Positions 1-29,700 of a stretch of DNA of 64,000 nucleotides are shown piece after piece. The number at the start of each line of letters is the position of its first letter. The first letter of the stretch is position 1. Source of the DNA: Raillietiella orientalis (lineage: Eukaryota). Under the pieces are notes generated by a model that worked only from the letters and a program-made list of their open reading frames with translations, did no database searches and was not told the DNA's origin. The position numbers and the translations under genes are program-made. The DNA lies in the NCBI GenBank assembly GCA_036172245.1, contig JAYWIR010000004.1, positions 5,828,001 to 5,892,000 of the forward strand, in the 5' to 3' direction.

Positions 1-1255
1 TTCTATTAGCTACACAACGACTATGGGTTCCACCCAAGCTCCTCCAAATTGGAACACCAAGATACCGCTACCCAAATACACGAAAAAGTGTAGATGCTTT
101 TCTTTGAAGCAAGTGCTCACGGAAAATGGAAAACAAAAAGCATTTCCAAGAGCAGCTCCTTTTGGCGAAGCAAAATGCTCTTGTGAAGTTTTCCTGGTCT
201 GTAAGCAAATGGTGGCTGGTGACTGATGATATAAAGCGCAGACTTGGTTTTATGGTGTTGTATAACAAATCCATATTATGCCAGCTTATTTTCTCTTTCC
301 TTTGTAAGTGCTCTGAAGCCAAATTCCATCCGGGAGAGCACATCGTGAGAGAAACTTCACTAGGAAAATGAGCTTTACAGAATCATCACTCGTCTCACGA
401 AGACGTGATGAAATTCTTTTTGGTAACTCTGGCATCTAGAAATTAGTTTTTCAACGTAACTGGGTTTCTTCGGCTGTCTTCTGAAAGCCAAACTGACTGC
501 ATTGTATTCATTTTCGAATGAATGAAATGGCACATAGTGTTAAAGGTAAACTGAAAAAAACACGCCATTCCAGCGAGTTCCAGAATCTTCGAGTCTTGAA
601 CTTCCATAGTCTCGAAAGATCTGTAATATTTTTCGAGTCGCTAAATCAAACGATGAATATCCATTCTCTCATAAAGAGAGGAGATTAAGCTTCTTCCACT
701 CTCTTTTACTAGCACAAGTTAAGCAAGAGAAAAGTTCTGCTTTTTCTTGATTCCAACATTAATTTTTAAAGCGTTTGGGTTTTTTTATTTTTTTTACTTC
801 AAGAAAAAGCAAAATGAAATCACGATGCAGCTGCAAGGGCTTGAATCGTCTTAAAACGAGAATTTTTCCGGATGGTTTCTAGTAAGTCCTACACTGGGAA
901 TCGAGAATGACTAGATGGAGTAGAAAGAATGTATCCATAGGACAAAAATGGGTTGCCTTCGAGAGAACTCACGTCGGAACAACCGATTTCTCTTAGTAAT
1001 TCAAATATCCAATTACATGGTTGAGAAATGGAATGGAACTAGCTTTCCCAAGATACATGTGGGATGTTCCATTATACTTAGCAGAAGTCGTTCCTCATCC
1101 AGGAAAAGTTGTTTCTTAGTTGGGCGATTTGTGAATTTTTTTTTTTTTTTCTCGGAGAAAGTGCAAGCGTATTTACAGAACCTCTTTAGTTCAAAGACGC
1201 AAAATGTTTGTGAGCCATACAAATGCATGCATTTCAGAATCAAATCAGCACTTAC

Positions 1256-3548
1256 ATTCAAAGGTTGAAATAAAGAGGAGTAAATGACTTCCAGTTCACT
1301 TTCGAATTTCGCTGGACGCAGATGGTAGATAATGTATAATAGCTGCGCCATATTTAAGATCATAAACGTAAAGTTCCAGCTGAAAATGTCTGGGGCACAC
1401 AGCACATTCCAAGCCCAAGTTGAGTACAGTAAGAACCCTAAAAAAATTTCGTGGGATCTAGCAGTTCTTGTTTTGATCCATACATCTTCAAACACTGAAG
1501 CAAGAAAGGCAAAAATTATGTATCGAATTGCATTTACGGTCCTATTTATTCTGTAGCTTACTGACGAAATCACTGAATAACGGTCAGATTTATCAAGTGG
1601 CATTGAACCAAGTGATCTAGGAATTTTTTTCGAGATTCACGGCCACCTTATTTCGGGCATCGCACGTGAAGTACCACAAATTACTGTTTCTTTGCCTTAT
1701 GAAACCTGTAAGATGATTGCTTCAACGGAAACATGAAGTCTTGGAATGAAAATCGCGAAAGAATACAAAACCTCGCTAGAGTACCACAGCTTCAGACAGT
1801 GATTATAAGGAGCAGCAATGTTTTTCGCTGTTTCATGTGGGTTCGAGAAGGGAGAAGAGAGAAGATGGGTGATAAAGGACCAGAGGACAAATGGGAATCC
1901 TTCAAAAATGCTTAAGCAATCGCTTTTTTTTTTCCTTTTAGGGATGTTCGAGGTTTGATTGAGCTTCCTGATTCTTCAGCCATGTCATCTTGTGCTTTCG
2001 CTCATCTTACAGTTTTGCAATTTACCAGAAGCAATTTACCGTCTTTCATGAAATTCATGCCTTCAAAGTTTACCGCCTCTCAATCTGAATGTTGAAAACT
2101 TTTGAAAGCAAGCTTTCAGGATGGAGCAGAATCCTCGCAAAAGACATTGCCTCTTAGATCAGAGGGCATGATGCTAACTTAACCAAAAGGCTATCTTGCA
2201 CTCTAGAAAAGGTCGTTTTCCAAGCCCACGGACTACCCCGTGCACTGCCACCCTCTTATGCCAGACTTATCGCATTGGCTGTACTCATTAAAAAGAACTA
2301 CAATCATGTTCTTTTGAGGAGCTCTTTTGAAACCGTTTGTAACAAAACTGCAACAGAGAAGCTGCATGCTCTGCATTTCTGGAAGTGCTATTTTGTTCCG
2401 TGTGGCCAGCAGCGACAGGAAACATCATCGTCATCATCTGTCTTTGTTCGAGCAAAACCCCTCTTGTTAGAACGCTCTAATGCAAAAGACACCTTCAATA
2501 AATTTCTATAATGTATTTACATGCAGCTGTTGACTTGCACCATGAATGAATCATTGAATCATTCAACAAGTAGGTTGCTCCACAGAACACCTCCTAGACA
2601 TATTAGGAGGGGAAGAAAAAAAAAAAAAAAGATCAGAGAATTATACAGGAAGTTATCATTCAATGTACACGTATATGAAATAACCGTTAGGAAAGCCAAA
2701 TTAGGATAGTCGCTCACTGAATCCATTAGAATTGCATATCTACGCCTGAAGTTTGCAGCATAAGACCAGGAATGTATCGTCGAAGACTTCTGCAGAGCAC
2801 TTAGTTTCAGCTACTTACCGCAGGCAAAAAAAAAAAAAAAAATCATCCAAAAAGAAATTCCATGTTATACGTTGCACAGTTGAATGGCAAATAGCGCATA
2901 GATAAATGATTTATCATGAATGCTGGTGAAAACACTGGTCTGGTCTTGGTAAAGTGATCGTTCCATCAAACTTTAGTGCAATTCCGACTAGTGTAACTCC
3001 CTAGACTCCTGATATTCAAAACCATTTGAGATTCGGAATGAGAAAGAATGACGAAGATGACTTCAATTCGTAAAAGATGAAACAATTCTACAGTTAGGCA
3101 CTGATGCAAACTGTCTGCAAATACAGATCGGTACCGATTTAGCAATGTACAGCGAGACGAGGTTTTAAGCAACTGAATTCGTGTCATGTTTCTAGATCTA
3201 AAATCAACACACGCACATCTACATACCTATAATCAAGAGGCCATGCATAAAAAGCATGCCTTCTCGTTTAGCTGGAGACAAATACGAAAGGAGGAAACAC
3301 AAATTCGCAAGCTGAAACAGGATATGTTGAGGTGGTTTCCATTCGTAGCATGGCAATATGGAACCTTGAAAACAGTTCCGTCAAAGGAACGAATGCATTG
3401 CTTTCGTAGAAATGGGAATTTTCTTCGAGGAAAAGGTGGAAATCACTTTGAAGACTCACCGAGAAAGCTCACATTATATGGAGGAAGCGACGAGAATTTC
3501 CGAAACTCCCCGCTGGTGGCATCCAGATTCAAATCGTCGTCATGGTTC
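1256..3548 (-). CDS. Popeye domain-containing protein (POPDC/BVES family, POPDC3-like), partial: exons 3460-3548, 3227-3364, 1256-1437; downstream exons lie beyond the left edge; start codon not located
   Basis: Spliced translation ...PYNVSFL/GSILPCYEWKPPQHILFQLANLCFLLSYLSPAKREGMLFMHGLLII/GFLLYSTWAWNVLCAPDIFSWNFTFMILNMAQLLYIIYHLRPAKFESELEVIYSSLFQPLN matches the three-TM N-terminus of Popeye proteins. Junctions are GT-AG and phase-compatible. Confidence 0.9.
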
Positions 3549-6500
3549 CTGATTTGCATACTCGCATTCACATGGTATCAAGTTTTCTTGATCAAGAAAC
3601 TTACAGATGAAGAACTAGCCGTGTATGCGCATGGTTGTTGCGACATGCATAACCAACAGGCAATCGATTTCCCTATAGTCAGATGTATTACCAAATTCCA
3701 AGAGTTTATCACTGGATCCTTAGGCACGCGGGAAGGGATCGCCTGAAAGCACTGATGATCTGCTAGTGTACTCGATTTTCCAGCACTCAGGCGACAGAGA
3801 GGAAGCAGATGAAAGGGAGTCAGCCACGGGATTTCGCATGAATATCGGAAAAACCTGCTCGCCGAAAAGAATATGGTGGTGGCTACGGCGGGGCCAGGAT
3901 TTTCATCCGGGTCAGTTCCCAGGTGAATTGAGCATCGAGCTCTGGAGTTGCGTCTTGGAGCAGCAATGGCTGCTTGAAAAACAGACATGCACAGACCAAG
4001 TCTGGGGGATCGCACAAAATCATGTCTTTGTTTCCTCCTTCTTTTTTTCTTTTTTCAATACAAAGAACAAGGCACGAAAGTTCCTCCCCTGACAGCCACC
4101 TGAACTTTGAAGAGCCGTGAACAAGCTGTGAGCATTCTTTTGTGTGGAGAATCCGTCCGTGTTTACTCTGTGCATGACAAACACGATTTTTCGGAATTGC
4201 GGATTCTGATACCGCAAGTTTTGATCGAAAATTCGTATCACCCCACGTAGCACTCTCGGCACACTTTGGTGTACGCATGCTGAAAAACGAAGCTCTCAGC
4301 ATCACTTTGGAAAACGATTCGAAAGACTTCGAGAGCTCCGGCTGCTCATACATTCAAGCAGTCTCTAAGAACGCAAAAAAATACTAAACGGTGAGACATA
4401 AGCAGAACAACGGATTAGGGCGCGAACTTGAATCTGGGAGGGAAGCTGTATAATCTGAGTTTTCATACCGACGCTAAAAACCTCAGTTTCCGGATGAAAA
4501 AAAAAAAAAAAATCTAGCTTGGGAAACAACAGACTTTTAAATTAGACCCATTGCATTTTCCAGATATCCAACGGCTGCAGTGACACACTCCTTCATCTGA
4601 AAGAGTAGCAGATATAAATCAGCTTCGCATTCCCATTCGATTCTCATGATGGCTAAAAATAACTCCAGGAATTTCATCGGAATATGATCTGGGACAACGC
4701 TGGTACAGGGGAGGGGTCGTCTGCGGGGACACGTGGCGACGGTCTGGGATCTGGCGTTCATTTTAGCTCGTCTTTGCAGCGCTGGTGTCGGGGCGGCTTG
4801 CCACACTTCCTGGAGAACGGATAAATTACAAGACGAGCACTGCAAAGGAAAAATTACTTTTCATTTCCTGCCATCTGGAACAAGTATTAAGTGGATTACT
4901 TTCCTCCGTTTGGTTCATTTAGGTTTCACGTAACCATGTAATTCTCTTCTCCTCGAGTTATACGGAATCGTACACACGCGAAAGAAATCCCTGGCTGTTT
5001 CCGAGTGAACAAAAATCCTTTCCGAAGTCTGTCAGCTCGGAATCAGAAGCAGTCCTCTAACGAGAAAAAATTGGCAGCAGCACATCTCGGCAGAATGGAA
5101 TGGAAATGGAAATGAAACGTTAGAATGAAATATCAATCTATTCAGGGAAATGAGATGAGGTTAATTAATAACTGAAACAAAATCATTGCACTAGGAAAGT
5201 ATTTCACAGTGGATAGGAACCCTTTACTCTTCTTTTTAATCCAAGGAATACTGGATTTTCTCAGTTTCAAGTATCCAGGACACCCTGTGAAAAGCTCGCT
5301 CACTGATCTTTTTGGTTGGCAGGAATCTGTTGCTACGAAATCGTTCACTCATTTTGTGCAGCAACGGATCTGTCTACCTAGGAGGCATCTGTCAGCTTGG
5401 GACAAAAGCAGAAACGTGTGAATCTGTTTGTTTATCAGGGTCATCAGTTTTCGTTTGCACGCTTCACATTTATTTCAAGCTCGTTTCGCATTAGGAATTT
5501 AAAACATCTGTCCACTTTGTCACATTAAAGTCCATTTTCACATCAAATTTCTCTCAAGACTGGTTACCAAACATAACTATGGTTCAGTCCGTTACTGCAT
5601 GAACACATCATAAATTTTCACTTAGGACTTCCAGTAAATCCTGTATATTTGGAGTTGTCGAGATTTTTTGAAGTTCTCTCGAAACTCCTATTACGATTCC
5701 ATTGTAGTGCAGCAACTGATCTCCTCATCCACCGACTGAATGACTTCACCATCTCTTGTGATAAACATTTAAAAAATGGAAACAAGTTGCGAAATTCCAC
5801 GGTTCTTTTATATTGGAAATTTTTATAATAATTACATTTTTAGAATTAATGGTCCCTGGCAATGAACCATTCAATCGATCCTTTTTTTAGTCATTGGGCA
5901 TATGAGATTTGTAATGATCCGCGAATCACACGAAGTGGTCTCATCCGTTCTTTCCTTTGGATGTGGTTCTTGCAACCCGAACACTACTGGTTAACATAAT
6001 AACATTTTATGGTAAACTTCCGAATGAACATGCCGATTTAGGAAAATAATAAAAATAATAAACATCGACTAGAGAAACTTTTTTCGATTCGCCAGGGAGC
6101 CTTTGGATATTGAATTTTTTTACTCGTTGGAGTTGAATTCAGAAATCACTGCGTTTCCCAAGATCATGCCAATGATTCTCAAATCTCATGTAACTGTGTC
6201 CTATTTGAAGTGATTTGATTTCTTATCCTCAATAAATAAACCTCAACTTTATTTAGACTCAAAAGAAAAATATTCATTTAATTGGAATGCTTGAAAATTC
6301 CTTAATTCCTAGTGAACTCAGGTGCTGCAAAGGGCTGTCTCCAAGCCCTGCTTGCAGGGCAGTACTTTGCTCAGGAAAAATCTTCGAACGAGCATAAATA
6401 CAATTTTCTGCACTCAAGTTCTTTCGTAGCCACTGAGTGTTTGGATGCCCGAGACGGTGGACCGCTTCGTTGATTTTTGTTTGAATGCAGGGAACAAGAA

Positions 6501-7547
6501 TATGTCCACAGCTTGATAGCTCATTCTTGAACAACTCCATCTTAACTGAAATAGCTGCAACTTTTCCACCTCGTCCTTTCCATCCTTGTATGGTTCTTCT
6601 TATCAGAATACTCCTGCTGAAAAAGGTAAAGAAAAAGGTCTTCGTGTGGAGTAGATGAGAAAGGTGATAGTCTCATCCTACTTTTTCACAGCAAGGATAT
6701 CTACCGAGTGACTCGGCTTGGCCATACGAAAGAGAAGCACCAGGTTAACTCACCAAACTCTAGCAGTCACATCATACAGCAGATGGGTTTAATTGAATGA
6801 TGCACATGTAGATATCTATACAGGAGTTTCCACGTTTCCAGGTGAATAATCCCAATGAAGTTCAGTTGACCAGACCAAACAGATGGCGAAGACCCCGTTC
6901 CTGAATTCTTGTATTCCCAAAATATTTTTCAAAAATAAAGCTGCTCTTACCGGCCAAATATCTGATACACTACCTATCCAGTGTATAGTGTCCTATGGGT
7001 ATTTTCAATAAATCATCGTGTATAGCATTAAGATGCAGTGTAGGAGATTCCTTGCAATCATATGATTCCAGTCCATCTTCAATCTTCCCATAATTCACGT
7101 GTTTTCCGCGTTACGCGTCTTTGACGATGGACCTCCATTTGGAGCAGCTAGTGACTCTTACAATATGTGCCAACAGCCCATATTCCTCATGGCAAGAATT
7201 CTTTTCTGGATAACTACATTGTTTTGGATCATGGAATATAGAGGAGGAGTAATCAAATTGAAGTCAGTTCTTTCTCACCACTTCATTATTTTCCGGGATG
7301 CATTACATGATACTTGTCTACTCACGAAGTCTATGTTCACGTCTCATGAGCTAATTCTTATTTGGCTCAACGACCACAGGAACGTAACTATGGATGTTGG
7401 CGTCTTGCTGTGGAGCATGTGCCCACTCTTGACGGAGTTGCCGATCTCCAGCAAAGGTTGCGCATCTAGTTTTACCCCATGTGCGCCTCTTCAACTAGCA
7501 GAATGTGATTGACGAATAAAGAAGAGACAGACTAAGATATCTGATAT

Positions 7548-7583
7548 ATCGCTTCTCGGCCTTTTGGCTAAGATCAAAGTGTA
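7548..7583 (+). pseudogene. U2: U2 snRNA 5' fragment (first 36 nt), truncated inside the branch-point recognition sequence
   Basis: ATCGCTTCTCGGCCTTTTGGCTAAGATCAAAGTGTA matches the conserved U2 5' end. It then continues TGAAAGG instead of GTATCTGTTC; no stem II or Sm site follows. Confidence 0.85.
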
Positions 7584-7835
7584 TGAAAGGTCTCTGTCAC
7601 TGACCTCCTTAAGAGAATACGGAAATCTGTTGGTGCATTTCGTCCTTTTAAAGAGTCGCCACATGTTCACCATCGCCTTTCCATCCCAAGTGGGGTGATC
7701 CCAAATGTGTGTGTGTGTGTTTTTTTTGCTTATTCGGAGACCATACAAACGGAGAAGGGCACTGGCTCTTCGGTAGGGCTAGGTCGTGCAGAGAGTGCCT
7801 TCTTCTACTTTCTTCCATTGAAAATGGCGTTTACT

Positions 7836-7866
7836 TTTGATATTAGCCAAAAGGCAGAAAAGCGAT
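7836..7866 (-). pseudogene. U2: Second, more diverged U2 snRNA 5' fragment (31 nt)
   Basis: Minus strand ATCGCTTTTCTGCCTTTTGGCTAATATCAAA, 28/31 identical to the copy at 7548. Confidence 0.75.
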
Positions 7867-8624
7867 ATATCAGATATCTTAGTCTGTCTCTTCTTTATTC
7901 GTCAATCACATTCTGCTAGTTGAAGAGGCGCACATGGGTAAGTTCATGGAAGATCCTGTTCTCCTTCTTTCTGGGTGCTGTCTCAGGCTTTGTTCAGATG
8001 CCCCCACAACTACGATTTGTTCTTCAAGAACCTTCATTGCATGCACTCTTCTTCTGAGAGCCAATCCCCAGTTTTCCGTCCTGTTTGCTGGACCTTTCTC
8101 TCCTTCACGGTTTCTCGGAAGGCACGCCTGGAGCACTCGTTTGCAGAAGATACTGAGACAGCATCCTTTTGGATTGTCTTCCGTACTTCTCTGAATGGGA
8201 CAAAGTCCTCCCATAAGGCCTCTGGGAGCGATTTACAAGGGTCTTTTTTACTGTAGAGGACGGCATTTTTGCTGATACCCGTTATTATCTTTCCGTTCAG
8301 ACTAATGCCCTTTTCTGTGAAGTCATCAATCAGTACGATGCTGAAGGCCTAAACCGAGAACTTACTAATGAAAAAATGATGAGCGCGATGTGAGCAAAGT
8401 TTAGCTCCTTTTTATGCAAGGCTAGAACGATTTTGCGTTTCGCGTGATTTTTGATGGCACTTTGAAGTTAATTATATCCACCTTCGGATCCGCATTCTCT
8501 GTGGACTCATTCATGTTGCGTACTCTTTTTTCTAATGTGACTGTATTTTCGCTGCAGATCGCGAAGGGCAACAACCAGAGGTGTGGGTGGACCTCTGGTT
8601 GTTGCTGACGCTGCCAAGATTGAG

Positions 8625-8668
8625 GAGTCCACAGAGGAGGTAGTCACTACTCCCTCCTCTGTGGACTC
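8625..8668. repeat. Perfect 16-bp hairpin
   Basis: GAGTCCACAGAGGAGG (8625-8640) pairs with CCTCCTCTGTGGACTC (8653-8668). Confidence 0.85.
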
Positions 8669-14568: not shown

Positions 14569-17500
14569 TCAGTACTTCAGAGAGCAGACAAGTGCTACAC
14601 CTCTTTTGGTCCAGTGCTGTTGAGGTTGCTGACTGCAAAGTTCAACAGACAAGATGAAGTTTGTGGAGTGGCCAGTAGTTGACAACATGCCAGCCCGGCT
14701 AAGAGTTTTGTACACTGGACATTCATATACACCTTCATCAGGGCATTTGCGGTTGACTTCCGGCTGCAGCCATATTATTGGCATTGCTGAAAAATTTCGT
14801 GATTTGTTTTATGATGCCGAACTTACCTGTAAACAATTCTTTTGGACGAGACTCAGCTAACTGATGAAGTATTACGTCCCAACGAGCACCTTCTAAGAAT
14901 AGCCCTCTAATGTATGAGCCCAAAGGAGGTTTTTCAGGAGGACTAGTCTCAATTATTTGAAATCCGAAGCTGATGGTGTCTATGGACACTGTGTGTCTTC
15001 TAGCGAAATTTTGCAGTGTTCCTGTGAGAAACGCTTGTGGGAAAAAAAATCCTGAAATCCAATAAATAATGGGTGGCCCATGGTCGATCCATTGCTGCAT
15101 AAAATCAATCCTCAGGAAAAGATCATCAATCCAAGACCCTACTGAGAGGTGCATCGACATTCAAAAGTTTCATACCTAGAGGTTTCAATGAAGGGTATGC
15201 TGCTTTCATCCAAATTTCAGGAACCTGATTCTTGGACATGCTAAGCAGCATGGCTTCCAGTGATTCAGATAATAATACTAAGCCTTTGATTGCTCTTTGC
15301 AAGTCCATCATGGTTTCCCTCATGAGGTCAAGGAGATGATTGTAACGTATTAATTCCTGTTGCAATACTGTGTTCATCGATTCCGTATAGATGGTTGGGT
15401 ATCTTGCGTAATAAACACAATTGATGCAAGAATACATTCTGAATACGTACTTTTTCAACACTTCCTTAATGGGGAAACATTGAGGCAGTTTTGTGATGAT
15501 ATCCTTGATCGTATGCAAAACCACTTCTTCCTTTGTTTGCTCGCCTAATCGAATGGAAGATCATGTATAGCTGAAGATGTATATACGCTCTGAAGCTCAC
15601 ACGAATAGGTTATGCGTACCTATGCATGTATGAAAGTTTATTTACACACACACACACACACACATGTACATCGGATATGTATGCATGCATTCAGGAGCGA
15701 TAATTAGTTTTATTCCGTTCTTGTTTTCTGTTCGTTACTAGAATTGGCTTACAAATTCCCGTAATCTCATATTCTCATTGCTCATAGTCCGTGGTTTCTC
15801 TTCATTTGCTTTGAAGTGACTAATCGCGATCGGATCCTTTGGCTGATAAGTAATCACAAACGAATCGGAATCTTTCATCAAATTCGATTTCGGGTGACCT
15901 GTCGGGAACTTTAATGATTTCTCTGATACTCACTTTTCAATGACTCTACATTTTTTTTTTTTTTTTTTTTTCACGTTACCGTGGGTCCACTACCGGATCA
16001 AATTACGGAGAACGCTTTTTTGTGGCACGTACCAGCACCAGCATGTAAAGGCTGTAGTAATGACAGCTCCCTCAACAGTCGGTATCCTTCATACTGAGCA
16101 AAGGTAATGTCGGCATTTTCATGCAGACCAAAGATGTGTGGTGTATCATTAATAGGCAGTTTCCACAAAGCATCCAGATAGTCTTGATGTGTGTATTTCG
16201 ACGGAAGCTAAGTGCCTAATCAACAGACAGATTGGTGCATCCGTACCTGCTTGTAAATTCCGAAATTATCAAAAGCATAATTCTCATCGAGATTTTTGGC
16301 GTCATAAAATACGTCCAGTATGCTTATTATGCATCTACGATCCCAGTCATCGGTAACACGGCCTCCGTAATTTATGTGTCCTGTTGTGAACTTCAGCACC
16401 TAAGTGTGTAAGAATCATAAGCAATGGTGTTTGCTGCTATCATCTGTCGCAAGCGTATTCTTGGATAAAAACAGAAACATCAAGTGCGTTGTTTTGGAAT
16501 GAAATCGAATTTTCCTGGATGCTATCTAATCGCCTAGGTGTATATAAGCTAGTTTAATCCTCATCGATAAGAAAACTGAGGTGATCAAAATAGGTATTCA
16601 AAACAGAGGGCGAAGCCTTCTGTTTTGAATCTGTTGCAAGCCTTCCAGGTGGCCTTATTTCTTAGAAAATGTGCTTTTTCAAATTTACGGAAAAATTTCA
16701 CAAGGAATTTAGCGATTTTACTTCTATGCTAAAGATTTGCTTGGCTGCCAGACTTTCAATTTCCATATCGGTCATTGTATGAAAATACATGGAAATAAAT
16801 TTGATTTATGTCTTTAACTGTAACGGGATTTACGTTTTCCAAAAAAAGAGAATTCTCAGATATGTAAATAGGAAAGCTTCGAATTGAAACAATAAATGCC
16901 ATCTTGGTGATCTCCTACTTCCGATTGGTTTCTCTCATGATCCCATTCTCGTACTTCAGTTTCAACTCACTTTCACTTGAAGTTTCATTGCAATACAAAT
17001 GCTCCTATTCCTACAGTTAACGACTAAACGCATTTTTGAGAGACTGTAAAATCTTTCGCGAAATTCATGTTCTACGTTAAGAGACGGGATGACAAAATAT
17101 CCTTACTTCGAAAGGGATGTAATCGTATTCTTTTAGGAACATTCCCAATTGAGAAACAGATATTCTAAAGTCACTGTCGGAGAACTCGTAAGATATGTTG
17201 AATCCCAAGGAGCCGAATTTCCTTCTTTCCAAACAAACTCCATGGAACATCGATAAAGAAAAGAGAAGCTTCTTGAAAATAGGGGATTTCGCACTAAGTG
17301 AATTCATCATATCGTCATTGATGAAACCAGTATACAATTTTAGCAGATTGGCCTGGGGAATCCCATGTTTTATTGTGTATTTAAGGGTGAAACAGACTTT
17401 TATTCCTCTCGGTGGCTCCAGGGTAATCTTTAATCCATCTTGTAATAATCCAATAGGAAAGCTCAAACTAGGCATCGATGTGAGCCACAGTCTGAAGTCT

Positions 17501-17797
17501 TTATGCACAGCATCTGGATGAAAAGATTCCACTAAGCTTTCCAGTTCAGGCATCCAACTTGGAGCCAAATGACAGTTCTAGAAAAAACCTCAGTTACATG
17601 AAGATTCTGTTCAGTTCTGACTACACTTTAGATTATTTCCTTTAACAAGTCCTCATCTAAGAACAGAGAGGCCATTCATTACAGACCTGATAAAATACCC
17701 ATTTACCACGCTCCATGGCTTCTTTCATCATAGCTTCTGCTTTAGGACCTTGACCCTGTCCTAAAGAAATTGCTGACAGTTTCTTTAGAGTGTTCAT
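14569..17797 (-). CDS. DNAH1: Dynein exon cluster, AAA6 and C-terminal domain: 17687-17797, 17398-17577, 17107-17352, 16247-16399, 16033-16207, 15451-15544, 15176-15402, 14827-15138, 14569-14786
   Basis: [83 protein letters not shown]. Confidence 0.95.
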
Positions 17798-20700
17798 CTA
17801 ATTTGGAAAGGAAAAATAGACATTTTGATTTAGACTCCTTGATTTTTTTGAAAGCAAGAATTGTATTTTAGTAGAAATCCTAACTTGCAGTTGCGGATTA
17901 GTGATGTTAGGAAATTGGGGAATTTCAAATTATAGCGATCATTACTAAATGAAAGCAAAAATAAAATGCTGTCACCCAAGATCTTTTGTCGCTACTTCGA
18001 GAAATGCTCATAGCATTGAGCAATCAATACGAACCAGCCTCAAAATGAGGAAAATATTCACATTTCTTAACCCCCAAAATGTCTTTTTTTGTCTTCATGG
18101 AAACTTGGTCTTATTTCACGTCCAAATCATCGTCAGAACTCTTGAAATTTTTTATTTATTTACTTTTGCGTTACTTTCACTGATAATCAAAGTATTACAT
18201 TGGACGAATTCTTCAACGAGACTAACTCTGGAACTCCCATGGACAAACAGAAAACAGAAGAGTCGGAAGAGAACTTTGTCCATTGTCAGATGAGAACTTT
18301 CTGACAAGGGAACCACTTATAGAGAGATCAGTATGGGAATTCTAAAATACAAGAAAACTAATCGGATGTTTAGAATCGGGCACCACTGTATCATCTTCAT
18401 CTTCTGATGCCCGATTGTCTCATTTTCTTATTTGCTTCTGTAGAATTATGAAGTGTTTACTGAGAATGAGTGTTTTTGGTTTTGTTTCCTGTTGAAATGG
18501 AGACAATATCGTTTGGAGATAAAAGCAGGAAGGGAGAATAAAATTTAGCGATAGAACTGAACGAAAAATGAAGATGAGAGAAACGGCATCAGCTTTCAAC
18601 AGTTCTCCCAAACGCACACTCGCTCATACAAAAAGGAAAAGACATGGGAAATTTCGTGAAGCGTGCTCGGGTTCAGTGACTGGGAAGCTGCTCCAGACAC
18701 AGGACGCGCACAAGTTTTGCAGTGAATCATCTGGCCTCGGGAAAGATGTTCACAGCAAAGAGCAAAAATACCACATGTCATTATCTTGAGCATTTCAGAA
18801 AGCCTTCTTAATCTCGACTATCAGCGATCAATCTTAATTCGCTCCAAAACGGAATTTGTGTCTTCAAAGGAAAGTTCATCACTCTTAAAAACGAAAAAGA
18901 ACCCTGAAAAAATGCAGCTACGAAAGGGGTACTCCAAGAGCCTGGAACAGAGGGAAAGGAGCAGGAAAATTAAGTTCCAGAAACAAGGGTGGTTTCGTGA
19001 AATCCGATACAGGAAAACTGAAGGAAAAATGTATCTCAATAAATATTCAGAATTAGATGCCAGAATGAAATATAAAAATCCGTTTTTCAAGAATGCATTT
19101 CTCAAGAGGGAAAGCTTTCCATGTACTCGAACTGTTGGCCTTTACAAAAGTGGCGAACTGTTTCGAGCTTGCCTTTTCATCGCTAATCGCGTTCTTACTT
19201 GCTACAAGGTTTCGATTTGCTTACAGGATGGTTTCACCGGCAGTTCCGAGAAGCTGCGAGAGAAGAATCTTTGCTTGCTTGTTATTGGCGTCGGGGATCC
19301 TTGTTGAAAGCCAGTTTGCTCAGAGGAAAGAAAGAGGGATTGCGGACGTATAACGGGGAGCGTATTTTTGAATGGATTGGCAAGCTTTTCCTCTACCCCA
19401 GAACAGCAAAATAGGCAATGATGACTTATTTCAGAAGTGAGGGAAAAAAGTCATCTGATCAGGCACGCTAACATGATCGTGAAACTTCACGAAAAGTCAA
19501 ACAGTCAGAGAGAGGATAGCGGGCACCTCAGTCCCACGAATGGAACGGATTCCGCAGTTCGAAAGCCAGTAGTTTGGGACAGCCTCCACCGACCGAAAGG
19601 CACTAAAAGAAAGGAACTGGACAGATGGGCAGCAAGGTTCGAAAGAGCTCACCAAGAGCCGTGCTGTTTGGCAAACCGCGTACTAAACACAAGTTTTGGA
19701 ACTCAGCTCACGCTGTATCTGGCGTTTGTAGAAAAGGTGAATGGTATAGAAAATCAAGAGCGGCGTGCTGGTTTCGTTCTCCATTAATTGCCCTACGGGC
19801 AGCATCTCGTCGTGGTTTTCGTGTCATCCTTTCAAGTCCTTTGCATCAATTTTTTTTTCTTTTTAGATGAGTACGCAAGGAGTTAGTCGATAAGATCAAA
19901 ACTGGAACTCCAATTTAGATGCGAAGGAAGGAACTACTTTTGATAAACAACCATTAGATGTTGAAGTTCTCCAAACAACGAGGTACGGTTTGCTGTGCCA
20001 ACTATGAGGACTCTTTTATATATGTGTATCCTCAAAGACTATTGCACGCGCACGCACACACGCACACACACACACAACTACATAAAATACGAAACACTTC
20101 TTCGAGCAGCGTCTCGCTGTTACTGTCTGCCAGAGATGCTCAGAGCATTTTCGCTCCAGTGGAGTTTGAGAAAATGCTAAATCAGTTATTTTTAAAAAGT
20201 GATGCAGCACGTGCAGAAAACTTAGCCAACATGATACAGCTCAAAGACATTGCAGAAAGCCGCAAAATGACCTCAGGACAGAATCGATAAATTATAGCCT
20301 TGCAAACTAGAATTTCATTTACAAATGTTCTAGCAAGCAGCACATGTTCAAAATCCATTGATTAAAAAAAATTGATCGGCATCTTTGCTTCAGAAGGAGT
20401 TAAAGAAGGCAGACATTTGGAAAAAGTGTAGGCTTTTCCAATAGGCAAATCTGTTTCTAAGCTGCTACGAAACTGTTGCTGTCTCTTGTGGGGATGCAGG
20501 TCGTTAATTGAAGCTAAGCTTATGAAGATGTCGCGAAGATGTGTTAACTGCTAAAGCACGCGGCAGGTTTAATATTGAGGAGATCGAAAAGATGGCAGTC
20601 AAAAGAAAAGACTCTCGTTCGAGAATCTCGTTCGCGTTGTTGTTTTTCGAGAAAAGTTGGCCAGGACGAATTAATAATCATCACTTGGAAACAAATCCAT

Positions 20701-23700
20701 ACAAATCACGTGAGAAACTGCACTCGTCAAGAGGCACCTTGTAAAAAACTTACTAATATTAAATTTAGGACCCAGAGGTTTTGGGGAAAACTGAATTTTT
20801 GATCTTCGGAAGCTGACCTCTGCAACAGGATTTTGTAAGAGTTTTCGCTCTTGAAAATCGGAAATTCACGATTCAGGCACGTGTTTACCACAGTAATTTC
20901 TCGTTGTAACGCCCTGCATCTGAAACCACAGAGCACTCTTCTACTGTGACCTCGTTTGAGGCAACAACAACAACAAAAATACTTTTGTTGTTATTGCTGC
21001 CTCAAACAAAAGTATTTTTGTTGGTGTCAACAAATGCTGACGGCAATGAAAGTCTGGCAAATCCAAGTCGGTTCCTAGTGCTTGTTGGGAGTTTTTTAAA
21101 ATAAGAGAATCTGATTCAGGTATCGCAAAAAAACCGAAGCATTCGTGTAGAATCCTGAATCCTCACTATCTTTAGCAAGAAATACTGCGCGAAAGTATGG
21201 ATTTCGAAAAATCGAAAAGGTACTTGGGGAGATATGAAGGCTGCCTTTAGCTAAGAGCTAGTGAGGATAGTGAAAATCTAATGGAACGACTGTATCGTTG
21301 CAAAAGGGGGGCGGAAAATGAGGAGGGCGGAAATGCAAAAATGCTGACTTTTAGTGGTTTCTCCATTTGTGTGAAACCTTTTGTGAAATTTCATTGCTAA
21401 AAGCATTCTTATAGTTTCTTCTTTCATTTTTTTTTTCTCTCATCACTTTATCACTGATGGACTGAAATTGTACGAACATCTGTAATGGTTTAAGCGAAAA
21501 TCGGAAAAGCCTAGCATTCTCAGATCCGGAGGACCTTGACTTCCATTCGTTTATAGACAACTTAAAGACAGTGAAAGGGTTTGAGGAAAATTCACTGCGT
21601 TCTCATTCGGTTCCGAGTTCGGCTGGCCATTTGAAAATAAACGTGTATGAATTTACAGTAGGAGAAAAACATCAAAGTGGATTCTGGTGGTCAGCTGTGG
21701 AAGAATCTCTTGGCATCCTTAAAGGGTGAAAGCTGGAACTGACGTTGGTAAGCGCGTAGATGAACGGGCAAAAATCGAGTAAAAATTTTGTAATGCAAAT
21801 TCCACGTTGGACCTGAAATCGATTCAAGGCAGCAGAAGTTTCTGCAATCGCAAACTTTGAAGCGTACGAGTGATGCACTTCTTCACTCAGTTTCCCCTGG
21901 TTATCGGGTGCAGAATCACTGTGCGCTAATTATCATGCAGCATTTAGCAGTTTGGAAGATTTCTCTATCGCTCCTCACTGGCTTCAGTGTCAGATACAAT
22001 ATCGTAACGTGATACGTAATCACTTCTACAGGACAACCAGCCTAGAGCACCGTCTTGGAGTTGAATGGAGAAATCTTTTTTCCGTTCTACGTCTGTTTAA
22101 TTGGGTATCTTAATCAGTTTATGGAAACAGTTAACCTCTGCAGCGTTATGTGTCTTTTCTGTATGTGTATTCGTTTATGATTGTGGATCATAGGGAAGCA
22201 TCGCAGTGCACACTCACTTTGCATTCACATCGAATCAAAAACTCACTTTCAAATTGCAACGATTTTGACGAGGAAAAGCGTAAACGGACGTCAACTTTTC
22301 GGAAAATTCGGATCCCGAATCGACATCCTAGCCAGCCTTTGTTAGCAAGAGAAGAGGGAATAACACAATGCTGATAGTTTTCCATGGCACGAAAGCACAT
22401 GAATCTTCCTGCAAATGCATCTTTGCGCTTCGCTTCGTTCTACTTCATCCGTTGTGGACGAAATAGAACAGATGTTCTGATGCACCGAGAACAAACGGAG
22501 CTGCTGAGATGCGAACGACATGAGGACAGGGTCTACGATGCATTCCTTTTGCTCTGCCGCTACCCTTCGACATCGTGCTAGCCTCAGTCTCAAACACAGG
22601 CCGTCAAATTCCAAAGCTTACACAGAGCCTAGAAATCGTCTAATGTGCGAGTGTATGCATCTCCGCGTGATTTTTTCAGAAACCCCTATTCTCAAGGTAG
22701 GCGGACGTGAAAGGTTGCAAATTTGTCAGATCGCATCATTTTTCTGGATGATGACGCCGCCGCATTCCTTTTGGATGATGTACGCTCATGACATCCCTCC
22801 CTGCCTCATCGGATTGCGAAAAGTGTGCAGACTAGAGGCCGAGGCTGGCCCTTCTTCCGGTCGTGCGCTGGACCGATCTTGAAGAACAAAACTCGCAGGA
22901 GGCAGCTAACGAAATAGTGCGTGTTTCTGGAAACATTAGAGGGCTTTGTACGTGTCCAAAGAGGGAAGCTGTCACCGAAGCTCCTTTCCAATGGCATGCC
23001 GTGGTTTGCAACAAACAAACCACGGCACGCTTTGAGCTATCCGTTCTCCACTGCTTGGAATGTCCCACGCGCATGCGGAAAAGAAGCGGCTCGCAGCAAG
23101 CAGCGAATTCTCAGTTTCCTTTCCTTTATGAGACTCCGTTAGGATGCTCGGCGAAGTGCTAGGAAAAGGGGTGAACTGCGCTCGCGTTCCTGCCTCAACT
23201 CCTTTCAGCCTCCTCTCCGGGAAGGAGGAGGAGCAACGTTTCTCGCCTCGTTACGGCAGGAGCTCCACGCAAAAAATGAAAGAACATCGCGATTTACCTG
23301 TTCGGCGAATTTGTAAAGATCTGACGCAGGATCCGTTCCTTGAGAAAGGATGAATATAAACGGTGTGAGAGGCGAGGTTTCCTCAAATAGGCTCGATAGT
23401 TCCGTACTTTGAGGCTCAATAAATTTTTTCCCTAGGTTGCTGGCGACGTAATCCTGTGTTTCCGTGAGGAATCTCTGAAAGGTTCTTGGATTGTTTCGAG
23501 AAATCTACCTGGAATCCATTTATGAGTTTGTCTGGCCTCAAGGCTTTCATTATCAATAGCAGCCTGAATCGATCTAAGTTCTGTAGGCCAGTTACTTCAG
23601 AGCTCTCTCCGAGAACATTTAAATTCTCAGAGAGTTCTTGAGAGTTACCAGTGTCAAAGTACTCTTGAAAGATTTTGGGATTAGCGATGAAGACGTCTTT

Positions 23701-26700
23701 GAACCCCTGGAATTCTCCCAGAGTTTCTAATGCTTGAATGTCATGCCAGGATTTCTCCGTCAACCATTCCGGCTCCGGATTAGGGGACGATGCCTGCATC
23801 ATCAGCAGTCGAAGATGAACGGAATTCCACATCACTGACCGTGTCAAGGTTTCCCTCAGCCAGCAAAAACTGGAAATTTTTGAAGTTGACGGATCCTTCA
23901 TCCAGGAGAATATGGATGCAAATAAGAACAGAAAAAAGTAATTTGTGCTTCTCAAACAGACTGCGGGAAACATTTCTATAAAAATTGAAGGTGAAAGTGT
24001 CGTTTATGGCACGGATCCTGTGTTCTAGATCGTCTACCAAACAAAGGAATAAACCCCATCAGCCATCCGTCGGTATACCTGATTTTTCTGCAGATTTCAT
24101 GCTGTCCCAGAAGATCTTTCGGAACCATTCCAAGGAAAACTGATACATGTAATCGATATGAGATATATCCGCAGCACAAAAAAATAAGATCTGTGCTCGC
24201 AAGGCCACCTGCGTGTACTTACATCGGGTCTCATCGATGTCCTTCTCGGTCAGTTCTGCGGTGGCAACTTGCTCCTAAGCAGAAAGACTTTGATCAACGC
24301 GGAGAAATTTTCGTATCGGGAGCAGTGACTCCTGATGTGAGTACTGAGCGTTCAGGTGAATGGAAAAACGCTTTTGATGTGTTCGAAACCGTTATTAGCG
24401 AAAACGGCAGCAGATCGAGCACGACGTTCTTGAAAGCAGGGAGTCGAAGAAACCTCGATGAATCTTACTTTTCTCAGCGATTCCTGACAACTGTTGACTG
24501 AGACATAAGCCGGTTTATATTGCATCGTGATGATCATGTAGTAAAAAAATTGCTGCCGGCGTTTAAGGAAACGTGTACACTTTGGAAAATTTTCTAATAG
24601 CATCTCTTTTCGCGATAGACAAAGAAATAAAGAATAAAAAAAAAGAAGGAAGGCCTTCATTGAGGGATCTTTTCGAATGAAGTCACCTTTATCTGGACGA
24701 AAGTGCTTTTTGATTCTTGCAAAGTATGAATCAGTTCGAAATCATCTATTGGGTAAGTGGAGATATTCAGCTGCTCCAGAATTTTGTCTTCAATATCCCT
24801 TAGTTGTTGTTTCATCTGAGAAACGTTCATTATCAAGGAGTTTTTGGCTTCTTCCAAATCTGGTCTTTCCATAGCAACTACGATGCTCAGAAGCTGATCT
24901 CTCAATCCACTGGAAAGTTTCGTTTGTATTCACGAAAGGAGAATTCTAGGAATGGGGACGTTACCTCTTGCTAATTGTGAAATTTATCAAGGAAACTTGT
25001 ATGCTCAGTTCTGGAGTGTAATTGGGATTGGGCAGCTTTGTAGTTATGTAAAATCTGAAATTATCGTTGTATGGAATTTGACTGTCTCCCAGTTTCATGG
25101 TGGTAAATTCTCCGCTTTTAAAGGTTTGTTTGAGAAGCACTGGTGTCAGGGACCCATCTAATTCTTCCCCCACGTTTTCTAGCAGGCAAGGTTTTCCGAA
25201 ACGGATGCAGACTTCTAAAGAACGCATGTAATACTTGTCGGACATCTTTATGATTTCAATCCTATTGGAGGATTCCTACAGATTTATATTGAACACCGGC
25301 GCGTCAAAAGTTTTCTCTGTGAAAGTACTTCTCTGACCATCTTTTTAATCCATCTGTTGGCTTGGCTTTGAGGATCAATGAACAAGGGCCATCGCTTGGA
25401 TAACTGAGAAATTATGGCATTTTCCAAAGAGTAGTTGTCATTGGGTAGACCAGCTATCTGCCAGGAGCGAATCAGAACATTATCTCCAAATGTACTGATA
25501 AGAGAAGGAATTCCAAAATAAGGTATTTGCTTTCTTTCGATGCTTTGAAACCAAGACTGCAACAGCTCTTGCCGGTATTCTGAATTAAATGGACCCAGAT
25601 AAGCGATGGTTGCTGAAAAAATAATTACAACTTAATTTAAACAGCTGCTTGATAGAGATGGTTGGCGACACTGAATAAGAGTTTTTTTTTCTGTAATAAT
25701 CTTATATTTAGGAAAACGCTGACATTATGTTATTGAAGTGACAAACGAGTTGCATTCAGTGTTACTTTATTTATAATTCTTGTATTCACGCAAAAGCGAA
25801 CTTTGACGACCACGGACTTTGATCTTAAACGCGCGCAGGATGATGACCAAACTGGTATTTCACACAACATGGGAGATAGCGCAAGAACTTTCGCTTTAGT
25901 TTGTTCGTGCTCCACTTGAAAAACGTAAACTTCAGAATGAACCGAAACGGTGCACCAATCACGAAATAAAAAGGGGGGTAGCGATCATTATCTTTCTCTC
26001 TTTTAACTTTGGACAGTTTATCCACCAGAAAAATTCCCAGCATCGTTTTATCTCCCCTAATTGAAGTTTCTGAAAACCGTAATCAGTGACTAGTATGAGG
26101 TGAAACGAAAAGATACCGGCAAAGAATCCCAAGTTTGAAAACGAGAGATGCAGCGGAATGAAACTCAGCCTCCAGCTTTTTTGAGACTGAGACGGCAGCG
26201 CTGAAGTCAACCGACGGGACTGAGACCACGTCATGCTTGGAGATCAACACCTTCAACATGTAGACACAAAATAAGGGGCTTTGTACTGTCCTGTTTTAAA
26301 ATCAGCGAAAAAAGTGTTGCAACACGGATTTGTATAGCGATTCGTTCTCGATAGAAGTTTGAGAAAACTGCTCTTCGGTAAGAAAACGTGCTTTGCAACT
26401 CTGTGACGCTGTTAGAACCATCTGGAATATATATATATATATATATATATGAAAACCAATAAAGTCAGAGGAAAAACGAATACAGGAAGAAGAGAAAAAT
26501 GCTTGTTGGAAGATATGTTGAACTAAAATGGTCCAAAACACTCTGCATCGAGCGAAGGAATTTGAATACTAATAGAAAGGGCAACTTAATACACACTTCG
26601 TTGTTCGTCGGATCAAACAGGAAAAATCCTTTGGTGTCAATGTAAAGAGTACACGAACTTGGCGAATCTCTTTGTACAAATCGACTACAATCCACACACA

Positions 26701-29700
26701 ACTGAATCACTCCCCATCATTTTCGAGGTATTCGGAACACTCCAATGCGATGACTCCCATTCGCACCCTATTTCTTCATTAGTGCATACTCTGCAAGCAA
26801 CCAATATTTAAAGCTGTCGAAGAGAATGCTTCGAATTAAATGGAATACGAAAACGATTTCAGTTTTCATTTTTTCCCTGTTCCAACCGCGTTATTGGTGC
26901 TGATATTTTTATAACGGCACAGCTCCATTGACTGTGAAATAAAAGAAAACACACATTCGCCCATTTTGCATTCACGCTAGGCAGATTTTATAGGGATGGA
27001 GTTTCCGTCCCTATTAATCGTTTGCGCTGAAACAAACAACAAAAGACTTCTGCGATATTGGTGTTTCAAAAATATCTGAACTTTTGGAATTGGTTCCCCT
27101 CGCCAATGTCAGCTAGCAGCATTGTCCCTGCTCCAGTGGGATATGGGAAACATTTTCGCAACCATTTTCAACGGAGTAGAGAATTCATGGGGCAAAAAAT
27201 TCATTTTCAACGGATCTAAGTTTTCATTTCAGCATTTTTTTTTTCTTTCCATGTCTCCTAGCTTTGAATCATTATGAGCTTCTCCCCTTCTCCTTTTAAG
27301 GATGTCTTGAATGGGAAATGCGACAAAGGCAAAAATCCAAGACTACTGGGCACCTTCCATCCTGATGTTATGTATTGCATGTTTGCTGTGTTTCAGAATG
27401 CAAAAGAATCACTAAAGATGTTGGATTATTCATCCAATAATTAGGAGAACACGGAACAGGATACAGGAACAAAGAGTCCTAACATTTTGAAGACCTCTCA
27501 AATAAAATTCCATTTCGTCTGGACGGACACAAAATTCTTCTAATTTGTGACTCTCTGGTTCCTTAATCTTCCGATTAGCGAAAATCAATCGATTCGATTC
27601 GATCGGATCATCCTGCTTGATTTGGCTCACTCCTCGCAGACTGAAACGTACATTAAAATTAAGTGAGATTCAACTTTATTTGTAACTTTCTCATTTTGGA
27701 ATTCATCTCTGTGCTTGCAGATGAAGTTTATTGGGATCGAGAAAACAGCCGTTCTGTTATTCTGATTCGGTCGAGTATTTTAAACCCGTACATTGGTTTG
27801 ATCTTGAGAATGTTTCAATAACACAGATCCTTGAAAATAGGCAAGATGTTACTAGAAGCAACGGATTCGTTTGATGCATCCAACATTTCCCATTCCATAG
27901 TTTTCATCGAGATGCTCAGCTTCGAAAAAGCATTTCAACGAGGATGCCATGCCCCCTAAAGAGATTTTCGTGGGACTAAAACTAAAAACGGCACCTTTCC
28001 ATAACTAGGAAATCAATGGTTTTTCGTTCTTCAAATTTTAAATAATTTTGGAGAAGAGATTAGCCAATCTAGCTCAAGTAATAAAAATTTCAATTTCACA
28101 ACGGATCTAAATAAATTATCCTTTGGTTACTCTTCAGTCTATGATTACCATAATTAGAAATGCTTTCAAGATAATGATCCTTTATGCTCATAGATTCTCC
28201 ATTCACCATTTGAGAATATCCAGAGGACACTTCGAAAAGCGACCTCCTGTTTTCACTCAGTGAAGATGGCAATCATGGGTGTTTCCAGGGAAAACAAGCA
28301 TCTATTGTGAAACGAAGCAATTATGTTTGGTTATGTTTCCGAATCCTGGAAATACTATAAACAATATGTTATGTTCATCAGATCGTTCATCCAAAATGGC
28401 ATCGTTTCATCAAAAGTAAACTATGTCTCGACAAGAGCGCAGGAGAACGCGCGTACAGATGAGTTGGTCTGTAGAGGCAGTATCTGTTCGATCTGCATGG
28501 CTATACTCGGAATGGTGTTTCCAATCTTGAAAAAGAATCGTAAATTACAATCACAGTTTTATGAATTGCTGCATTGAAGCTATGATCAACATCTTCATGA
28601 TATGGGATCACTGGAGGTATTCTAGCGAAAAATAAAGGGCTCAAATCCCCCATTTTGCGTATTTGGAAATGCGTGTTTAAGAGGATTGTTTCCTCCTACA
28701 TGATTCATTAGAAGAAGAATCTTCTGAACCATGAACCCTGTTCTGTTGAGTAAATTTTCGTGTTGTTCACAAATAATTTCGTGTAAATCCCTTTTGAGTA
28801 TATAAGAAGTTTCTATTCTGTTTTCGTGGACTGTATCGAGTGCGTTCCCTACTACGTTTTTTTTATGACCATCGCTTTCCCTCCCTTTCCTTTCGAGGTT
28901 CTCGCTCAGTCTTATTCTATAAGTTTTGAGAGCTCTTAATGATTGTTCTGCATTTCAAGAACTCTTGCAATCTGAAAACAGAACTTTTCATGAATGATCC
29001 GATCTTTAATCTCGAAATTCGAGCACATTTGAGAAGCTTTCGATTTAGTAGGGTGATTCGCTCAGTGTTCGCCCATTTCGAAAACGAATGTTCTCAATCG
29101 GTTTCACTTTGACCATCCATCTTTGCAAAGGATGTTTTCTCTGAACTGCAATTCATCTGTCCGTTTCGGTATGAAAAGCTCAAGGGAAGATATCCCGCCA
29201 TTGACCACACAAAATAACTGGATTCGCTCATCTGTAATTTATGTGATTATGGTATCCCAAATGTTTGAACGATGTGAGACGCAATCGAATTCTCAGGAAA
29301 ACTGAAATGCAACGAGGGTTTCCTACTTTGCGATTCGAACGCATGTATCTTCGAAATGTTCGAAGTGCTCGAATCTGCCCACCTCGGTGCCACTCTGGAC
29401 GCGAGTGTGCGTGCGTATGTGTTTTCGATTTCTTTCTTTCTCTCTGCGAAGTAATTTTTCCTTTATTTTTCTACAAGTGTTTGCACACTCATTGCAAACC
29501 CCTTCCAAAGCAGCCATTCATCGCCAGCAATGACACGAGCGTGTTCTGCATCCGTTTGTCTCGAAATCGCATAAAAAGCGAAGGCTACGAAGTCATGCAG
29601 TTCACATATTTTGTGATTGCTTGCTTCTTCACATCGCAAGTCCTCCGCATTCACGGATCAAAACAAGCTTATTTACTACCAATGATACAAAGCGAAGGGA

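Follow-up and report, generated by a model that had tools for sequence, protein, structure and literature searches.

An inverted pair of U2 snRNA 5′ ends, tentatively read as a MITE-like foldback element

The window analysed here, a continuous stretch of DNA 64 kb in length, contains a cassette of 465 bases (size range 463–469 bp) that lies between two ordinary animal genes. The cassette is an inverted repeat whose arms each end inward in the head of U2 snRNA, with a common inner boundary at U2 nt 35; the rest of U2 is absent, and the cassette has no coding capacity. The structure is real, and it is neither a U2 gene nor a retrocopy. The explanation that we favour, tentatively, is that the cassette is a MITE-like foldback element whose arms go back to the 5′ end of a U2 gene, copied at the DNA level. 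A one-off local inverted duplication, possible but doubtful in its own right, is nearly as likely. The novelty would be modest, that of a variant of the MITE or foldback form, if mobility is shown; otherwise the finding is an ordinary one.

The inverted repeat, its U2 heads and their setting

The two arms were delimited by repeat finding and blastn, and the U2 heads at their inner ends by comparison with Rfam. Coordinates here and below are positions in the window.

7476..7578, + strand: left arm of the inverted repeat, 103 nt
7836..7938, − strand: right arm of the inverted repeat, 103 nt
7548..7583, + strand: left U2 head, 36 nt, consensus positions 1–35 with one inserted A
7832..7866, − strand: right U2 head, 35 nt, consensus positions 1–35 with 5 more mismatches than the left head, the last five positions being read by eye
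7584..7831, no strand: spacer between the U2 heads, unrelated DNA with a (TG)n run and then a T run at about 7706–7727

The arms are 97% complementary over their 103 nt and lie 257 nt apart (blastn of left arm against right arm, E=3e-45), which bears out the initial annotation, where inverted arms of about 105 bp had been described around an unrelated spacer of about 257 bp. The same annotation had given the outer 72 bp of the arms as identical; the identity holds, and the length has to be corrected, as the identical run extends over 79 nt and is made up of a 72-nt flank and the first 7 nt of U2. The three mismatches between the arms (7555/7859, 7558/7856 and 7572/7842), together with the further differences found up to U2 nt 35, all fall within the U2 part. 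Divergence is thus uneven along the repeat, with no differences in the 79 outer nt, then three in 24 nt, and more beyond. Under uniform change, the chance that all three mismatches fall within the last 24 nt is approximately 0.013, a figure that was computed after the fact.

A self-BLAST of the window (E<=1e-5) returned five minus-strand self matches in total; apart from the cassette arms, none of them is an inverted pair of 30 nt or more lying within 5 kb. No second copy of the cassette was found by blastn within the 64-kb window, where the remaining matches are of at most 18 nt (E>=0.024) and mostly correspond to (TG)n runs. Two 24-mers taken from the arms had no matches in metagenome contigs, prokaryote genomes or viral contigs, collections that are not expected to contain such an animal. 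Among sequencing runs, one DNA run containing a share of 0.21 of the sequence words was listed, and no RNA run. The spacer has only microsatellite matches elsewhere in the window. It has no Rfam match and no unusual fold, its folding energy being ordinary on both strands (z=-0.84 and z=-1.05), and the possibility that it is a structured RNA was rejected on account of this ordinary folding. No tRNA was found in positions 1–7541.

The inner end of each arm corresponds to the first ~35 nt of U2 snRNA (Rfam RF00004). The left head scores 36.6 bits (E=1.5e-5) and the right head 23.8 bits (E=0.018). Both matches lie below the RF00004 gathering score of 46, the threshold of the family, because only the head is present: model positions 1–35 align and the remainder is deleted. 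Leaving aside its inserted A, the left head matches the Rfam consensus at 34 of 35 positions. It stops within the branch-point-recognition sequence, as had been claimed from the sequence at the outset, with the Rfam alignment ending at position 35. The earlier identification of the inner ends as U2 fragments also stands, for the head of U2 only; of the lengths then given, that of the left fragment (36 nt) is correct, and that of the right fragment (31 nt) is too short, since this head is diverged and runs to about 35 nt. Past U2 position 35 the two sides are unlike U2 and unlike each other, with one match in the next 12 columns, and therefore the doubled unit reaches from 72 nt upstream of the U2 start through U2 nt 35. 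In both arms the repeat stops within a few bases of the point where the likeness to U2 stops. No Rfam family reaches gathering level anywhere in the 64-kb window, which also holds no other part of U2, the 3′ part included, and no Sm site or terminal stem was seen by eye after either head. The cassette cannot make U2.

Open reading frames within the cassette are of at most 110 codons. Beside it, the + strand ORF at 7066–7473 has no homologues among 1.84 billion representatives, and no homologue was found for the − strand ORF at 7942–8232. Neither of these two flank-adjacent ORFs has a Pfam match (they are among 20 window ORFs scanned), and their codon-usage scores are near zero. No reverse transcriptase or endonuclease domain was detected in the 20 ORFs, and five ORF products in and beside the cassette, one of them entered with a wrong start, have no exact match in the protein collection. 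The two genes between which the cassette lies are recognisable from their exons.

1148–1447 and 3225–3368, − strand: exons of a POPDC (Popeye domain) gene
~14572 to beyond 34266, − strand: exons of an axonemal dynein heavy chain gene (DNAH1-like)

Because the first POPDC exon, that of the N-terminus, was not located, the site of the cassette may be either intergenic DNA or an upstream intron of the POPDC-like gene. For both proteins only distant relatives were found, the best named ones being crustacean (a barnacle dynein and a shrimp POPDC, each at 49% identity). Our guess is that the host is an arthropod with no close relative sequenced, and one that is likely not an insect.

The 72-nt flank and the outer junctions

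The U2 head of each arm is preceded by the same 72 nt, within which two blocks lie at distances of interest from the U2 start.

7476..7547, + strand: 72-nt flank before the left U2 start, a candidate snRNA-type 5′ flank
7867..7938, − strand: mirror copy of the flank, identical to 7476–7547
7484..7504, + strand: block at the position of a PSE, −64 to −44 (centre −54) counted from the left U2 start, 7548; mirrored at 7910–7930
7515..7523, + strand: A/T-rich box at about −33 to −25, mirrored at 7891–7899, where a PSEB or TATA box would be

A plain retrocopy is excluded because upstream sequence precedes the exact +1 of U2. The initial annotation had argued from the shared flank to copying at the DNA level. 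This is right for the relation between the arms, each a DNA copy of the other; sharing by itself does not prove that the flank originated in a real U2 promoter. The +1 of U2 is exact and the block lies where a PSE would lie, and we infer from both that the flank derives from a real U2 gene, in which case the 72 bp would once have been a U2 promoter.

For comparison with the PSEA, the AACT of the arm was set at PSEA positions 9–12, a placement that follows what we take to be the fly consensus. Animal PSEs centre ~50–55 bp upstream of the start (Hernandez et al., PMC1761439), and the block, centred on −54, fits this rule, position alone being compared. In flies the PSEB occupies positions 30–37 on the PSEA numbering, and insect Pol II PSEAs are conserved at T5 (100/101), C6 (101/101) and C8 (95/101) (PMC1761439). 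Under the AACT alignment C8 is present, position 6 is T and position 5 is C, so that T5 and C6 are both missing, by a rule for insects that may not hold outside them. A PSEA-like block had been proposed ~64–43 nt upstream of each U2 start; its distance is confirmed (−64 to −44, and mirrored), and its likeness in sequence is not, given the missing T5 and C6 under this alignment to an insect consensus. The likeness to the PSEA is one of position only.

At their outer ends the arms meet the surrounding DNA as follows.

7468..7475, no strand: left junction, AGTT (7468–7471) followed by TTAC, with TA at 7473–7474 and an extra C at 7475
7939..7944, no strand: right junction, TA (7939–7940) followed by AGTT (7941–7944)

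The left side thus reads AGTT-TTAC-CCCATGTG and the right side CACATGGG-TA-AGTT. The clean ends that had been described, with TA directly abutting CCC on the left and GGG on the right, were not found, as the extra C at 7475 parts the left TA from the repeat by 1 nt; the right TA directly adjoins it, as the TA on both sides would in a Tc1/mariner-type element. The junctions can be read in three ways, each of them possible: as a TA duplication, which requires an extra C at the left end; as a 4-bp duplication of AGTT, which requires unequal ends; or as no duplication at all, the repeat continuing for another 3 nt (TTA) beyond a gap of 1 nt. The dinucleotide TA is its own reverse complement and would serve equally well as an extension of the inverted repeat or as the mark of a target duplication. 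Among 20000 random pairs of positions in the window, 1393 have an identical abutting dinucleotide and 2147 have a direct repeat of at least 4 nt within 4 nt of the ends. Since such repeats occur at 7–11% of random pairs, none of the three readings rises above chance. A piggyBac-type element, considered in view of the CCC...GGG ends, was rejected, as the flanks are TTAC (or TTTA) and TAAG rather than TTAA.

The restoration of a reading frame was also considered as a sign of insertion. When the cassette is cut out in silico, + strand frames of 136 and 84 codons join into one of 220 codons, and a spanning frame of at least 200 codons was obtained at none of 3000 random positions. All nine variants of the cut (trimmed by 0–2 nt on either side) still give spanning frames, of 173–240 codons, so the frame match carries no information, and it was rejected as evidence of insertion. 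The + strand around the cassette is poor in stops, with 5 of 4000 dinucleotide shuffles reaching 220 codons.

Comparison with known elements

In its anatomy the cassette resembles MITEs and foldback non-autonomous DNA transposons: it is ~465 bp long, its terminal inverted repeats are long and near-perfect, its centre is non-coding and unrelated to them, and it lies in an intergenic or intronic position. It differs from them in that its arms are composed of what appears to be the 5′ flank of an snRNA gene and the head of its RNA, that it is single-copy in the window and that its candidate target duplications do not exceed chance; we know of no transposase partner or family consensus. Classical foldback (FB) elements carry tandem subrepeats in their arms, whereas no direct-repeat families were found around the cassette (7000–8400). 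Truncated snRNA pseudogenes, or orphons, that have been copied at the DNA level consist of a non-functional gene fragment with its 5′ flank, situated away from the gene cluster. Unlike these, the cassette is doubled in inversion, with sharp common boundaries. In the literature searched, as far as its text was accessible, there is no description of arms made of the 5′ flank and head of an snRNA gene, and no publication combining “U2 snRNA” with “foldback”.

Three groups of mobile elements are known to be associated with snRNA sequences. SINEU are retroposed SINEs with heads derived from U1 or U2, one family having a 32-bp 5′ piece of U2 (PMC4494074). They share with the cassette the reuse of a short stretch from the 5′ end of U2, which in SINEU heads a repeated element. 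As described in the available text of the same source, SINEU have a polyA tail, lack both an inverted repeat and a shared upstream flank, and are known from crocodilians only. The arms of the cassette, by contrast, share 72 nt upstream of +1 and lack an A tail, and a retroposed unit of the SINEU type was set aside on these two grounds. Utopia and Keno are non-LTR retrotransposons specific for U2 genes, in which the downstream U2 part starts at nt 39 and the 5′ boundary differs from family to family; arthropods are among the hosts of Utopia (PMC4640811). Their interruption of U2 is at nt 38/39, and the heads of the cassette stop close by, at nt 35. The cassette differs in having its boundary 3 nt away and its pair inverted, with no retrotransposon body or U2 3′ part in the window and no reverse transcriptase among the 20 ORFs scanned. 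An insertion of Utopia or Keno in U2 was likewise set aside, as the break is at nt 35 and neither U2 from nt 39 to its end nor an element body is present. Dada are DNA transposons that target U6, U1 and tRNA genes, and share with the cassette the association of a mobile element with snRNA gene fragments at the DNA level. They measure 4.7–11 kb, lack terminal inverted repeats, produce duplications of 6–7 bp and lie in direct orientation within the gene, and Table 1 of their description includes no U2-targeting family (PMC3706591); the cassette, at ~465 bp and with terminal inverted repeats, is of a different build.

Origin of the cassette

The two readings put forward in the initial annotation, a MITE with an snRNA promoter and U2 head as its terminal repeats and a pair of convergent snRNA promoters, are both compatible with the anatomy of the cassette. 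If the cassette is a MITE-like foldback, a dead piece of the 5′ end of U2, copied at the DNA level and comprising the 72 bp flank and the first 35 nt of U2, would have been doubled, its two copies facing each other as mirror images across ~250 bp of unrelated DNA. The product would be a small, non-autonomous element, or the remnant of one. Strand switching during repair may have made both of its long terminal repeats out of one original end, and the gap between the POPDC-like gene and the dynein heavy chain gene would be where the element inserted. On this explanation we infer that the unit is, or formerly was, mobile, and that further copies of it exist. The combination of small size, a long near-perfect terminal inverted repeat and an unrelated centre is the anatomy of a MITE or foldback element, and the lack of Pfam matches and homologues for the ORFs in and beside the cassette counts for a non-autonomous one. 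The sharp boundaries common to both arms, CCCATGTG on the outside and U2 nt 35 on the inside, favour a discrete module over a random segmental copy. The block at −54 and the A/T-rich box near −30, at the places of snRNA promoter elements, count for an origin in the end of a U2 gene. The identical outer run of 79 nt suggests a copy that may be young or homogenised.

Other observations count against this explanation. There is one copy in 64 kb, and the window is otherwise poor in inverted repeats of the MITE kind, so that the base rate lends the mobile reading no support. No convincing target-site duplication is seen, as the TA needs a 1-nt offset and the AGTT needs asymmetric ends, both at chance level. 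The confinement of arm differences to the U2 part, with none in the 72-nt flank, is not what a single recent duplication predicts. Real U2 genes may have converted the left head, or the outer part may have been homogenised recently between the arms; in either case the age of the cassette would be greater than its 97% identity suggests.

The cassette may instead have arisen by a local rearrangement that happened once. A U2 fragment (−72 to +35) would have been captured, perhaps during the repair of a break, and break repair or template switching in replication would then have duplicated it in inversion at a distance of 250 bp; the result would be neither mobile nor part of a family. Although doubtful, this ranks next to the MITE-like foldback. 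It agrees with a cassette that is single-copy in the window and has unique flanks, with the lack of a significant target duplication, and with the extension of the repeat by TTA past the 1-nt gap, by which the “TA” flanks may themselves be repeat; the uneven divergence is also what would be left if the duplication were older and conversion between the arms had since homogenised its outer part. However, it requires two rare events at one site, and makes a coincidence of the fact that in both arms the inner end of the repeat is, to within a few bases, the end of U2 homology, which a random template switch would not be expected to respect; the size and form of the cassette, moreover, match those of a transposable foldback. 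The stop of both heads at nt 35, three bases from the published Utopia/Keno target site, raises the alternative that the cassette is a remnant of U2 genes hit by such a U2-specific element or its endonuclease, the 5′ part of U2, cut or joined at ~nt 35–38, representing the upstream junction that was later rearranged into an inverted pair. The presence of Utopia in arthropods (PMC4640811) and the crustacean affinity of the best named protein relatives in the window are in keeping with this alternative. We nevertheless consider it improbable, as there is no U2 3′ part in the window, the 20 ORFs scanned yielded neither an endonuclease nor a reverse transcriptase domain, the sequences after the two heads are unrelated (1/12 columns), the break site is 3 nt off, and the inversion is not explained by the model itself.

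The intact 72-nt flank, identical in both arms, with a PSE-positioned block and an A/T-rich box at promoter-like distances and an almost canonical left head, would be compatible with a pair of working, convergent snRNA-type (SNAPc-dependent) promoters, from which short capped U2-headed chimeric RNAs or dsRNA across the spacer would be made. This appears less probable still, because the block lacks T5 and C6 under the AACT alignment (by an insect rule, in an animal that may not be an insect), the heads are followed by no Sm site or terminal stem visible by eye, and the fold of the spacer is ordinary. An extended form of the same idea, to which we attach an equally small probability, would make the cassette one copy of a mobile foldback family, with complete working SNAPc-type promoters and the cap-proximal head of U2 as terminal repeats, both firing inward, so that each copy would produce capped U2-headed chimeric RNAs or dsRNA from the cargo between its arms; such a family might have been born at a U2 site cut by U2-specific endonucleases. 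If it were true, a transposon would have borrowed the expression signal of a spliceosomal RNA. Inverted duplications can also be produced by chimeras in the library or assembly, and a chimeric foldback read or mis-join is the least probable of the origins weighed here. Artefactual foldbacks are usually exact and have no spacer, whereas the arms of the cassette differ at 3 positions, enclose a unique spacer of 257 nt and sit 7.5 kb inside a window without N.

Should the arms prove to be a repeated mobile unit, the MITE-like foldback would be the first DNA element known to us with terminal repeats consisting of an snRNA external promoter and an RNA head. Its mobility would bear on the origin of non-autonomous elements from fragments of host genes, and on the spread of snRNA-type promoters through a genome. 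As a single local rearrangement, the cassette would be an ordinary pseudogene curiosity, relevant only as a possible footprint of breakage at the Utopia/Keno target in U2.

In molecular terms the cassette would most likely fold, either into a hairpin of 103 bp should transcription run through it, or into a cruciform or hairpin as single-stranded DNA. In this respect it resembles the long-inverted-repeat hpRNA loci of LIRBase (PMC8728187), as its stem of 103 bp and loop of 257 nt would give a long hairpin upon transcription.

Divergence between the cassette arms

The two arms of the inverted-repeat cassette (7476-7578 on the + strand and 7836-7938 on the - strand) differ from one another only within the U2 head, the first ~35 nt of U2 snRNA carried at the inner end of each arm (7555-7583 versus 7832-7859), and the 72-nt flank is free of any difference. 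Since the differences are confined to the U2 head, and the left head (7548-7583) is near-canonical, the sequence suggests gene conversion, for which either real U2 genes or the other arm would have been the source.

Coding potential and repeats around the cassette

Few stop codons are found on the + strand around the cassette (7066-8256). The + strand frames adjoining it are open for 148, 103 and 104 codons, and the frames joined by cutting the cassette out run to 173-240 codons, in all registers. Homologue and Pfam searches with the frames of this stretch gave no match; the scarcity of stops may reflect a T/C-rich strand composition, or an orphan gene that has decayed.

The only other blastn matches of the cassette within the window are two (TG)n/(CA)n microsatellites (15644-15665 and 20056-20076), which resemble the (TG)n run of the spacer between the U2 heads. 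Shortly downstream of the cassette lies a palindromic match of 44 nt (8625-8668, 86% self-complementary).

Neighbouring genes

Two genes neighbour the cassette:

1148-3368, - strand, POPDC (Popeye domain) gene, two exons
14572-34266, - strand, DNAH1-like axonemal dynein heavy chain gene, 3' third or more

The products of both are closest to crustacean proteins, at an identity of only ~49% each.
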